Of a stretch of 21,709 nucleotides of DNA, positions 3,949 to 7,484 are shown piece after piece. The notes beneath the pieces were generated by a model. That model made no database searches. It was given only the letters and a program-made list of their open reading frames with translations, and had not been told where the DNA came from. The position numbers were made by a program, and so were the translations under genes. Positions within the stretch are counted from its first letter, which is position 1; each line of letters starts with the position of its first letter. The stretch comes from a virus (lineage: Duplodnaviria; Heunggongvirae; Uroviricota; Caudoviricetes), in the IMG/VR virus record IMGVR_UViG_2563366822_000014, one strand, 5' to 3'.

Positions 3949-4307
3949 ATACCTACAGTATCACATTACCCTGGCCTCCGAGCAATAATCGCTATTACCG
4001 CCATAATCGCGGGCGCACGCACGTCAGTGCAGAGGGGCAGGCATACCGCGATAACGTCGCCCGAATCATTAAAAGCGCAATGCTGGATATCGGCCTGGCT
4101 ATGCCTGTGAAAATCCGCATTGAGTGCCACATGCCGGATCGCCGTCGCCGTGACCTGGATAATCTGCAAAAAGCCGCTTTTGACGCACTCACTAAAGCAG
4201 GTTTCTGGCTGGATGATGCTCAGGTCGTTGATTACCGCGTTGTGAAGATGCCTGTTACCAAAGGTGGGAGGCTGGAACTGACCATCACCGAAATGGGGAA
4301 TGAATGA
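3945..4307 (+). CDS. rusA: RusA Holliday-junction resolvase
   Basis: 120-aa [46 protein letters not shown]... recognised as RusA; start overlaps the ybcO stop (ATGA). Confidence 0.95.
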
Positions 4308-4444
4308 TATTTGAGTTTAATATAGCAGAACTTCTTCGCCACCGCTGGGGGCGTCTGCGCTTATATCGTTTCCCCGGTTCTGTTTTGACCGATTACCGAA
4401 TACTGAAGAATTACGCCAAAACCCTGACAGGAGCAGGAGTATGA
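4304..4444 (+). CDS. ylcG: YlcG-like small protein (46 aa)
   Basis: ATG at 4304 overlaps the rusA stop; [46 protein letters not shown]; matches recalled DLP12 gene order rusA-ylcG-quuD. Confidence 0.55.
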
Positions 4445-4529
4445 AGTCAGAGATAACAATCAACTAATACTGTTTTATTGATTTTTGCTTGTAATTGGCG
4501 TTCTGGTCTGATTTTTGTGGAGTAAGTTG

Positions 4530-4913
4530 ATGCGTGATATTCAGATGGTTCTTGAGCGTTGGGGAGCGTGGGCGGCTAATAATCATGAAGATGTGACCTG
4601 GTCGTCCATTGCCGCCGGTTTTAAGGGATTAATTCCTTCAAAAGTAAAATCTCGCCCGCAATGTTGTGACGATGACGCGATGATCATTTGCGGGTGCATG
4701 GCCCGTCTGAAAAAGAACAACAGCGATTTGCACGATTTATTAGTAGATTATTATGTAGTCGGTATGACATTCATGTCACTGGCAGGTAAGCATTGCTGCT
4801 CTGATGGTTATATCGGGAAAAGGTTACAAAAGGCTGAGGGCATAATTGAAGGGATGTTAATGGCATTAGATATCCGGTTAGAGATGGATATCGTTGTTAA
4901 TAACTCTAATTAA
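4530..4913 (+). CDS. quuD: late-gene antiterminator Q (DLP12 QuuD-type, 127 aa)
   Basis: ATG at 4530 gives [62 protein letters not shown]...; Cys-rich zinc-binding pattern; sits between the nin region and the lysis genes. The ORF-track TTG start at 4515 is rejected. Confidence 0.85.
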
Positions 4914-4940
4914 TACGCCAATTATTTACTAAAAGTTATT

Positions 4941-4964
4941 AAAAATGGGGCGTTGAAACGCCCC
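4941..4964 (-). terminator. intrinsic terminator-like hairpin for minus-strand transcripts (downstream of nmpC)
   Basis: Perfect 6-bp GC stem GGGGCG/CGCCCC with 6-nt loop at 4947-4964; on the minus strand it is followed by ATTTTT (4941-4946). On the plus strand it is followed by A-rich sequence, so it is not a plus-strand terminator. Confidence 0.5.
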
Positions 4965-5052
4965 CAAAAATAAAGGGTAATATATAACAGAAGGTTTGTA
5001 TAGTTAGAAGCAAGGTTGTGCTTCTAAAGGAAGTGGCTTGAGGGAGCCACTT

Positions 5053-5086
5053 ATATGTTGGGGAGGCAAAGCCTCCCACAACATAT
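5053..5086. terminator. long stem-loop immediately 3' of the nmpC stop (3' stabiliser or terminator candidate)
   Basis: About 15 bp stem (5053-5067 with 5071-5086), one bulged A, 3-nt loop; followed on the + strand by CTTTT. The strand of action is not resolvable from sequence alone. Confidence 0.4.
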
Positions 5087-5101
5087 CTTTTAGTAATCAA
5101 A

Positions 5102-6184
5102 TTAGAACTGGTAAACCATACCTACAGCAACGATATCATCGGTAGCAACGCCAGATGCTTTCGTGAAATCGCTCTTATCAATCAGGTTGATTTTGTAGTC
5201 AACAAAAGTGGACATATTTTTGTTGAAGTAATAGGTTGCACCTACATCAACATATTCAACCAGGTCCTGATCACCCCAAACACCCAAGTCTTTTCCTTTA
5301 GAATGCAGGTAAGCAACGGATGGACGCAGGCCGAAGTCGAACTGATATTGTGCAACAGCTTCGAAGTTTTGTGCTTTGTTGGCAATATGGTTATTACCAA
5401 AAACAGTCATGTTCTGGGTTTCAGAATAGGTGGTGGCCAGATAGATGTTGTTCGCATCATATTTCAGACCAGCTGCCCATACTTCAGCATTTTGACCAGA
5501 AGCATTCAGACCGTTGTTACCGTAGATAACCTGATTATTAGTGCGATCAGATTTAGCATAGGTTGCACCTACACCGAATCCTTCATACTCATAAGTAGTG
5601 GAGAAACCGAAACCATCACCATTAGCTTCAGTTACGTCAGTGCGGTCATTTTTACCCTGATACTGAGCAGCAAAGTTCAGACCATCAACCAGACCAAAGA
5701 AGTCGTTGTTACGATAAGTTGCAACACCAGTGGTGCGACCAGTCATGAACACATCTGTTTGAGTCCAAGTGTCACCACCGAATTCTGGCAGGACGTCAGT
5801 CCACGCACCGATGTCGTATGCTACACCGTAGTTACGGCCGTAATCGATGGAGCCGTAGTCACCGAATTTCAGGCCAGCGAAGGCAAGACGGGTTTTATCT
5901 TTGGAGGAACCTTGAGATTCAGCGCGGTTGCCTTTGAATTCATATTCCCACTGACCGAAACCAGTCAGTTGATCGTTGATTTGGGTTTCACCTTTGAAGC
6001 CAAGACGGGCATAAGTAGTATCACCATCATCTGCATCATTAGAGGAGAAGTAGTGCTTAGCATTAACTTTCCCGTACAGATCCAGCTTGTTACTGTCTTT
6101 ATTATAAATTTCAGCTGCCTGAGCAGACATCGCCATCAGTACTGATGCAGCTACAGCAGAAATTGCCACTGTTAATTTTTTCAT
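5102..6184 (-). CDS. nmpC: outer-membrane general porin, NmpC/OmpD type (intact, 360 aa incl. signal peptide)
   Basis: [26 protein letters not shown]|[24 protein letters not shown]... ending ...VAVGMVYQF with the classic porin C-terminal Phe; signal peptidase site AQA|AE; recognised as NmpC-like. Confidence 0.95.
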
Positions 6185-6771
6185 CGTGAGCCCTTTTTTT
6201 TGAACTATTATTAAAAAATGATGTCACTGCGCGATAAATATTCATCTAATCAATGTGATTATTTCAAGATGTAAGTTTTAGTTTCTCATTTAATTTGTGA
6301 AGTAGATCTCTATTTTTATCTGAACTTTTTCTATCGAAACCTATTTATGGCTCTTATTTGAACAAAAATAAACCTATTAGCTAATTTATATTAATGGCTG
6401 TTATTTATGGGGGGCTATAATTCGATGGTTTAATTTAAATTAACTAAAAATAACGCCGGAAATTATTTATTGGTTATTTGTTGAGGTTTTCTTATGTATT
6501 TGTGGTGGTGTTTTGAACACTCGGTAGCATTCTCATAAATATCATTCAGTGGTTTACGTACGTAAAAAATTGGTTATGCTGTTAAGAGTGGTTACTTCGT
6601 CACACAGCTTAAACCCGCCGTCGAGCTGGTTTTTCCATTTTTTGAGTCTCGATATTAGCTGATAACTCAATACCTGAGTTATTCACTGACTCCGAGTCTG
6701 TTACGTTTCTGCTTTTTTGCGATACGTTGTATTCCCTCAATTTACACCCGCTTTGTCTGCGAGGTGGGGTT
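6185..6771. promoter_or_regulatory. 587-bp AT-rich non-coding region: nmpC promoter/5'UTR (minus strand) and leader of the lysis operon (plus strand)
   Basis: No ORF over about 17 codons; strongly AT-rich with A/T tracts and short palindromes (6431-6444 ttaatttaaattaa; 6559-6568 tacgtacgta; 8-bp inverted repeat ataactca/tgagttat around 6664-6684). Promoter elements are not confidently placed. Confidence 0.5.
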
Positions 6772-6987
6772 ATGAAATCCATGGATAAGTTAACAACGGG
6801 TGTCGCCTATGGCACCTCAGCAGGTAGTGCCGGTTACTGGTTTTTACAGCTGCTCGATAAAGTCACGCCCTCACAGTGGGCAGCAATAGGTGTGCTGGGT
6901 AGCCTGGTATTTGGCCTGCTGACGTACCTGACAAACCTTTATTTCAAGATTAAAGAAGATAAGCGCAAGGCTGCGAGAGGTGAATAA
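6772..6987 (+). CDS. essD: class II holin / pinholin (S21-like) with dual-start motif
   Basis: ATG at 6772 gives 71 aa [71 protein letters not shown]; Met1-Lys2-Ser3-Met4 dual start, two TM segments, charged C-terminus. The ORF-track TTG start at 6727 is rejected. Confidence 0.9.
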
Positions 6988-7484
6988 TGCCTCCATCATT
7001 ACGAAAAGCCGTTGCTGCTGCTATTGGTGGCGGAGCAATTGCTATAGCATCAGTGTTAATCACTGGCCCAAGTGGTAACGATGGTCTGGAAGGTGTCAGC
7101 TACATACCATACAAAGATATTGTTGGTGTATGGACCGTATGTCACGGGCATACAGGAAAAGACATCATGCTCGGTAAAACGTATACCAAAGCAGAATGCA
7201 AAGCACTCTTGAATAAAGACCTTGCCACTGTCGCCAGACAAATTAACCCATACATCGAAGTCGATATACCGGAAACAACGCGCGGCGCTCTTTACTCATT
7301 CGTTTACAACGTGGGTGCTGGCAATTTCAGAACATCGACGCTTCTTCGCAAAATAAACCAGGGCGATATCAAAGGCGCATGTGATCAGTTACGTCGCTGG
7401 ACATATGCTGGCGGTAAGCAATGGAAAGGTCTCATGACTCGTCGTGAGATTGAGCGTGAAATCTGTTTGTGGGGTCAGCAATGA
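6987..7484 (+). CDS. rrrD: SAR endolysin (T4-lysozyme-type muramidase, R21-like)
   Basis: 165-aa ORF; N-terminal Gly/Ala-rich weakly hydrophobic signal-anchor-release segment ([20 protein letters not shown]), then E35 ... D44 ... T50 spacing typical of the lysozyme catalytic triad; start overlaps the holin stop. Confidence 0.95.

Follow-up and report, generated by a model that had tools for sequence, protein, structure and literature searches.

Where does late transcription begin in a lambdoid prophage whose lysis genes are separated from the Q antiterminator gene by an oppositely oriented porin gene? The window (i.e. the whole stretch of DNA analysed, 21,709 nucleotides) holds such a region, of the DLP12 / PA-2 type of E. 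coli, and three genes frame the question:

4530–4913, plus strand: quuD, Q antiterminator gene, 127 aa (Pfam PF06530, E = 8.5e-54)
5102–6184, minus strand: nmpC/lc-type porin gene, intact, 360 aa (Porin_1 PF00267, E = 3e-152; a porin in RefSeq and in phage records)
6772–6987, plus strand: essD, phage-21-type holin with a dual start M1-K-S-M4 (PF04971, E = 2e-35)

Between the nmpC start codon (6182–6184, minus strand) and the essD ATG (6772) lies a stretch of 587 bp (6185–6771), which according to an earlier note on this DNA has no meaningful ORF. This was borne out, since the ORFs of at least 20 aa in the interval are all short and unconserved, with no credible one among them, and for the hypothetical proteins annotated there in some phage records no support was found. 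Downstream, essD is followed by rrrD and rzpD and, from ~9.2 kb onwards through the rest of the window, by long ORFs on the same strand, which we take to be packaging and head/tail genes. At a coverage of at least 80%, the 2.7 kb surrounding the interval occur in 36 phage records and in 2,373 of the 5,426 complete genomes of E. coli.

The base composition of the interval is not even: a GC content of 26.6% at 6185–6500 stands against 41.7% at 6501–6771 and 52.2% for the whole window, which means that its description as AT-rich holds for the first part but not for the second. The interval is in fact composed of two joined modules, a porin control region (6185 to ~6550) and a late-promoter module (6553–6771), and the AT-rich two-thirds are the upstream region of the porin cassette.

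Segment 6553–6771 is very likely the PR' late-gene cassette cognate to QuuD, i.e. belonging to the Q family of DLP12, PA-2 and the Shiga-toxin (Stx) phages. The assignment of PR' follows from homology to the mapped Stx PR' and from a Q-anchored survey (27/28 loci), and its elements are:

6553–6580, plus strand: late promoter PR', with −35 TTTACG (6553–6558), a 16-bp spacer and −10 TATGCT (6575–6580), by alignment to the annotated Stx-phage pR'
6553–6566, no strand: perfect 14-bp palindrome TTTACGTACGTAAA, candidate Q-binding element overlapping the −35 and the spacer, from a repeat search
6583–6612, plus strand: near-invariant start-site and early-transcribed block TAAGAGTGGTTACTTCGTCACACAGCTTAA, with a predicted +1 near A6587, by analogy with Sakai Sp5 and from conservation

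A sensitive search of 6185–6771 against phage genomes gave ~290 Shiga-toxin phage matches, which were restricted to 6552–6634. The annotated Stx records label this stretch 'putative late promoter pR'' and 'possible rho-independent terminator', directly after Q, and their pR' (TTTACG-16-TATCAT) aligns unambiguously with the promoter given above (Stx TTTACGATCGTAAAAATCTGCATATCATGATAAGAGTGGTTAC... to window TTTACGTACGTAAAAAATTGGTTATGCTGTTAAGAGTGGTTAC...). QuuD and the Stx-phage Q share 79% identity, both being PF06530 proteins and distant relatives of Q21. The late promoter had been expected within the interval and not beside Q, and the homologue of the mapped Stx PR' is indeed located there, at 6553–6580. 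The interval had also been called a long AT-rich leader, a description that does not fit PR' transcripts, whose leader up to essD comprises just 185 nt without being rich in AT.

The survey used the Q protein as its only query against contigs of one genome per species, and yielded 30 loci, 28 of which have a close Q (68–100% identical). Downstream of Q, TTTACG-(TA/AT)-CGTAAAA, then a TA...T hexamer and then TAAGAGTG were found at 27 of these 28 loci, the one exception being a contig that ends too early. The loci belong to eight genera (Escherichia, Shigella, Trabulsiella, Citrobacter, Pantoea, Xenorhabdus, Providencia and Morganella), and the element lies within ~140 nt of the Q stop codon in 23/28. 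For IMG/VR contigs, where spacing was counted only for loci reaching far enough upstream for Q to be detected, the element is found ~44 nt or 0.5–2.9 kb downstream of a QuuD-type Q. These spacings fall into a class of ~44 nt past the end of the Q alignment (Stx type) and one of ~1.64 kb with the porin in between (DLP12 type), with a few intermediates. Conservation starts abruptly at the palindrome in all porin-cassette variants.

Judged against the sigma-70 consensus, PR' matches at 8/12 positions, which is below the threshold of the scan. A consensus promoter scan of both strands of the interval returned no sigma-70-like site (over the 2.7 kb, 2 were found versus 7.1 expected from shuffles), and an Rfam scan of 4300–7200 with E up to 1 gave no match. 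Across 125 unique elements, the first T of the −10 is present in 125, the A in 124 and the last T in 124, while the inner positions vary freely, a pattern that, as far as conservation can indicate, is the signature of a working sigma-70 −10. The start itself was predicted by way of Sakai Sp5, for which dRNA-seq and Term-seq give 258 nt between the PR' start and the tR' 3' end (PMC7547250). Mapped onto the Sp5 sequence (locus L008), this distance puts the start at the A 7 nt past TATCAT, and by analogy +1 in the window would be near A6587. The early-transcribed block TAAGAGTGGTTACTTCGTCACACAGCTTAA includes a small stem of GUGG (6588–6591) with UCAC (6600–6603). Across the predicted +1 there is also a block G.TAAGAGT (6581–6589), present in 109–124 of the 125 unique elements and in both Q subfamilies, of which the A and T, five bases apart, are −10-like; it overlaps +1.

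Functional data exist for the module as a whole: in phage 434B a DLP12 segment can stand in for the phage's own Q, late promoter and lysis genes with viability retained (PMC9119081), and PMC7918800 refers to control of the DLP12 lysis operon by Q as a published finding. The Q gene quuD is situated upstream of the late promoter on the same strand, the lysis genes follow downstream, and between promoter and late genes there is a terminator, in a weakened allele in the window. PR' does not directly follow Q, as it starts 1,640 bp past the Q stop codon, with nmpC in between.

6611–6643, plus strand: promoter-proximal intrinsic terminator tR', with arms AAACCCGC and GCTGGTTT, loop CGTCGA and U-tracts at 6630–6634 and 6638–6643, from folds and conserved hairpins

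The T-tracts that had been noticed at 6615–6650 are the U-tracts of this terminator. The K-12 RNA forms an uninterrupted G+C-rich stem (AAACCCGC/GCGGGUUU) with a 6-nt loop, followed by U5CCAU6, and folds at −13.9 kcal/mol; the window folds at only −6.7 kcal/mol, T6627 giving a C-U mismatch in the stem, versus −21.9 kcal/mol for Stx. The T6627 allele also permits an alternative, weaker 6-bp stem of CAGCUU (6605–6610) with GAGCUG (6623–6628). A consensus terminator scan called none in the interval, 6611–6643 included. The 48 unique leaders show 31 distinct hairpins, and behind every one of them a U-run begins at +42 to +61; the stems include CCCGCC/GGCGGG, CCCUGCC/GGCGGGG, CCUCGCC/GGCGGGG, GCCUCAC/GUGGGGC and CCCCG/CGGGG. 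As 31 different stems occupy one position, it is the structure that is kept, and not the sequence.

Exact matches among E. coli records number 601 for the T6627 allele versus 1,790 for the K-12 allele (G), and T6627 is also carried by the isolated, viable phages PA-2, Turner, ev099, ev207 and PhiR29. For Stx phages, the 3' end was mapped to +258 and not to the proximal hairpin (PMC7547250). The tR' of the window, with its T6627 allele, is a candidate for weak termination.

Between the terminator and essD, three further structures can be drawn in the leader:

6662–6682, plus strand: inverted repeat ATAACTCA/TGAGTTAT (arms 6662–6669 and 6675–6682), a hairpin without U-tract, from folding
6703–6727, plus strand: small hairpin over a 16-nt segment (6706–6721) missing from K-12, from the K-12 alignment and a fold of −6.4 kcal/mol
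6747–6770, plus strand: hairpin able to pair the essD Shine-Dalgarno (GAGGTGGGG), from the fold centroid

The first had been reported near 6664–6684 and does exist at 6662–6682 as a perfect 8-bp inverted repeat (−10.7 kcal/mol, z = −3.0), but it was rejected as a second terminator: there is no U-tract, the K-12 stem has a mismatch and SfII has not retained the hairpin, which probably has no function. The Shine-Dalgarno hairpin, plausible by analogy with the S genes of lambda and phage 21, was also rejected, with a z of only −1.4 to −1.7 and partial retention in SfII. As for the 16-nt segment, two leader-length alleles occur, which place the palindrome 220 or 204 nt from essD. The segment is present in 29/29 assessable T6627 loci, and G6627 loci are divided into 14 with and 28 without it, an association that may be simple linkage. 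In the record of phage 434B, the essD gene (M-K-S-M) is given two starts, S71 for the antiholin and S68 for the holin.

The palindrome TTTACGTACGTAAA occurs once in the window, at 6553. Its right half is promoter spacer, which is normally unconstrained in sigma-70 promoters, yet it is invariant. The Q protein of SfII is 43% identical to QuuD, and SfII-type Q genes are paired with the palindrome ACGCGTACGC, the SfII promoter being AACGCGTACGCAAAA, with a symmetric A-to-G and T-to-C change around CGTACG. A scan for this variant gave 94 family elements; the Qs detected upstream of SfII-type elements are 52–83% identical to SfII Q and at most 55% to QuuD, and those accompanying TTTACG-type elements share at least 58.7% identity with QuuD. 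The −10 and transcribed block (TAAGAGTGG...CACACAGCTTAA) is common to both groups. Because the palindrome co-varies with the type of Q (G-CGTACG-C with SfII-type Q), it is a candidate Q-specific element. That TTTACG-WW-CGTAAA would be the specificity site of the Q family, possibly bound by two Q protomers in inverted orientation, is a tentative reading of the conservation pattern, to which we give slightly less than an even chance. A literature search with the palindrome string returned nothing relevant, which does not make the palindrome undescribed.

The SfII-type elements form a sister promoter family, in which ACGCGTACGCAAAA replaces TTTACGTACGTAAAA and the downstream blocks are shared (loci L162–L280 from IMG/VR, and L005/L161, which are SfII). 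Members always accompany an SfII-type Q and lie 0.6–3 kb from it wherever a Q was found.

The proposed sequence of events would then be as follows. Sigma-70 RNA polymerase would initiate at PR' (TTTACG-16-TATGCT), with +1 near 6587, and without Q most transcripts would end at the hairpin and U-tract ~44–57 nt downstream. Upon induction QuuD would be made, would bind the palindrome that overlaps the −35 (as its position and co-variation suggest) and, by analogy with Q21, would load onto polymerase paused just past the start, for which the early-transcribed block is a candidate sigma-dependent pause element. The QuuD-loaded polymerase would become resistant to the terminator and transcribe the 185-nt leader and, beyond it, essD, rrrD, rzpD and the genes for head and tail.

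The remainder of the interval, together with the spacer between Q and nmpC, belongs to the porin cassette, the features of which also provide the competing explanations for the late transcripts:

6202–6228, plus strand: sigma-E-type promoter candidate GAACTA-16-TCACT, start ~6233–6234, placed with primers given in PMC7918800
6238–6267, minus strand: predicted PnmpC, with −35 TTGAAA (6267–6262), 18 nt, −10 GAATAT (6243–6238) and a start at G6232 or G6230; conserved blocks, hexamers inferred
6296–6311, no strand: CRP-like site TGTGAagtagaTCTCT, conserved, with a CRP site annotated in the PA-2 lc record J02580 of 1986
6320–6550, no strand: variable AT-rich porin-cassette spacer holding TTGAAC and TAAATA, replaced or absent in loci L022, L071, L013 and L066
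4940–5101, minus strand: nmpC 3'UTR / IpeX-equivalent region, with two strong hairpins (5031–5086) and a minus-strand intrinsic terminator (4947–4964), from scan and folds

For K-12, PnmpC has been described as a sigma-70 promoter that starts at a 'G' no more than 199 bp from the ATG; Crp activates it, and OmpR, IHF and MprA act as repressors (PMC11677980). The interval does hold the divergent nmpC promoter that the earlier note expected there, at most ~200 bp from the start codon and in agreement with the K-12 work, and the CRP-like site TGTGAagtagaTCTCT (a perfect TGTGA-N6-TCACA in locus L071) lies upstream of this sigma-70 promoter, as in a CRP-activated PnmpC. Genomic SELEX has placed an RpoS-holoenzyme peak in the insH-essD spacer, at K-12 coordinate 576032 in the old numbering (PMC5493296). 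Conservation in divergent porin cassettes is limited to ~130 bp beside the porin ATG, which include the CRP-like site and the predicted PnmpC. By our own conversion between genome versions, the peak at 576032 presumably corresponds to ~6170 in the window, close to the nmpC start and promoter.

The explanation that best withstands the comparison with PR' is that in the lysogen the lysis genes are mainly expressed from the sigma-E promoter (start ~6233), with a true leader of ~540 nt and PR' being secondary, which we regard as a serious possibility, if a somewhat doubtful one. A sigma-E promoter has a GGAACTT-like −35, ~16 bp and a TCAAA-like −10, a pattern that GAACTA-16-TCACT fits, and the block is conserved in divergent porin cassettes, some of which have GGAACTA. 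For RpoE control PMC7918800 refers to Rueggeberg 2015, and its reporter fragment ('−121 to +650'), via the primers, would put the cited RpoE-dependent +1 at ~6233. The conservation of the block is, however, equally explained by the overlapping porin 5'UTR, and transcripts from this promoter would still reach the terminator at 6611–6643 without a loaded Q. Moreover, such transcription is compatible with PR' as the late promoter of the phage and is therefore not a true alternative to it. The sigma-E-type promoter and the predicted PnmpC stand back to back (6202–6267), each overlapping the DNA transcribed from the other, and a polymerase at either of them would probably occlude the other.

It is very unlikely that the palindrome and GTGG-N8-TCAC (6588–6603) are CRP sites of the porin and not elements of the late promoter: although the PA-2 record J02580 does mark a CRP site at the equivalent of 6589–6609, both blocks also occur in Stx phages and, without a nearby porin gene, in prophages of Xenorhabdus, Providencia and Morganella.

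Even less credible as the late promoter is the lambda-PR'-like arrangement TTGAAC (6513–6518)-17-TAAATA (6536–6541) that the earlier note had pointed out. Both hexamers are present with the correct 17-bp spacing, and the match is weak, as it had been said to be; the probable late promoter, TTTACG-16-TATGCT, is 40 bp downstream. The pair was unreported by the consensus scan and is no better than chance, TAAATA lacks the conserved final T of a −10, and nothing equivalent is seen in Stx phages or the other surveyed genera. K-12 DLP12 has both hexamers altered (TTCAAT and CTCAAATA), yet its late module works in phage 434B, and over 6549–6660 it is identical except for one base. Furthermore, the segment with the pair is missing in shorter porin cassettes, in which similarity resumes exactly at the palindrome. 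The spacer 6320–6550, to which the pair belongs, carries most of the substitutions relative to K-12.

That the late promoter is instead a lambda-like PR' right after Q, in the Q-nmpC spacer (4914–5101), has next to no chance of being correct: in 23/28 related loci the promoter does come straight after the Q stop codon, but here the spacer lacks the family palindrome (the sole copy in the window being at 6553), shows no promoter-like site in the scan, is filled by the porin 3'UTR/IpeX with its strong hairpins and minus-strand terminator, and resembles PR' with a score of 9 versus a shuffle mean of 8.7 (989/2000 shuffles being as good). A relic copy of PR' in this spacer (57% ungapped match, MAFFT) was likewise rejected, being no better than shuffled sequence. 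The Q-nmpC spacer is porin 3'UTR (IpeX) and not a promoter; its tandem hairpins (5031–5086) have a z of −6 to −7, and no Rfam model matched the region in the scan of 4300–7200. According to PMC12197685, IpeX is a 167-nt RNA that arises from the DLP12 porin transcript by processing.

A PR' displaced from its Q, as at 6553–6580, is not peculiar to the porin cassette: it is also found in SfII, phiP27, PhiR55_1, Citrobacter braakii and all SfII-type loci, the latter having 0.6–3 kb inserted between Q and promoter in all ~70. The inserted material differs, consisting of two minus-strand ORFs in SfII (L005/L161), a GIY-YIG nuclease gene in phiP27 (L006), one minus-strand ORF in PhiR55_1 (L007) and three minus-strand ORFs with no Pfam match in C. 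braakii (L138); locus L114 also has unrelated cargo at this place. The Q-PR' junction appears to be a recurrent point of cargo insertion.

Compared with known systems, the closest relative is the K-12 DLP12 (qsr') / PA-2 lc module, which is the same module. The interval is 96% identical to that of K-12, and PA-2 is 100% identical to the window over 6592–6656. K-12 differs by an IS5 in the porin gene (intact in the window), by G instead of T at 6627 and by the lack of 6706–6721. Control of the K-12 module by Q and RpoE (cited in PMC7918800) and by Crp (PMC11677980) has been published.

With the Stx phages (933W / H-19B / Sakai Sp5) the window shares, besides the 79% identical Q, the −35 and palindrome TTTACG-WW-CGTAAA, the 16-bp spacer, the TAAGAGTGGTTAC and CAC.CAGC blocks, and a proximal hairpin and U-tract at the same distance. 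The differences are that PR' adjoins Q in the Stx phages, whereas in the window it is 1.64 kb away with the porin in between, that the −10 is TATCAT in Stx and TATGCT in the window, and that the terminator stem of the window is mismatched. Homology ends at 6634, and the window is without the 258-nt StxS region, the second tR', the tRNA genes and stx, i.e. a PR'-StxS-tR' unit (258-nt transcript, StxS sRNA) is absent.

The logic is also that of the lambda PR'-qut-tR' unit (6S RNA), with a constitutive promoter, a nearby terminator, a Q that loads at the promoter, and read-through into lysis and structural genes, although the Q of lambda is of another family than that of the window (PF06530). In lambda the terminator is at +194 and PR' abuts Q, whereas in the window the U-tract begins at +44 and the promoter stands apart from Q. 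Q21 of phage 21, with PR'21 (PDB 6P18, 6JNX), belongs distantly to the same protein family as QuuD (E = 7.6e-8), and by analogy its 'nozzle' mechanism is the best available model for QuuD. Q21 binds a direct repeat made up of two 8-bp subsites, in contrast to the palindromic candidate in the window.

The interval is in itself an ordinary, largely documented and already known module. What has been added here are the positions of PR' and tR' in the sequence of the window and the rejection of two alternative promoter sites, together with the palindrome that co-varies with the type of Q, the cargo between Q and PR' and the weak-terminator allele. The probable start of late transcription is thereby located for a very common type of E. 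coli prophage, and in annotation PR' and tR' belong at 6553–6643 and not beside Q. The porin gene escapes late-operon control because it lies outside both the early and the late transcription unit. The weakened terminator stem occurs in about a quarter of the carriers, among them the plaque-forming phages PA-2, Turner and ev099, and may raise basal expression of the lysis genes, and the palindrome offers a ready candidate binding site for the Q protein that governs Shiga toxin expression.
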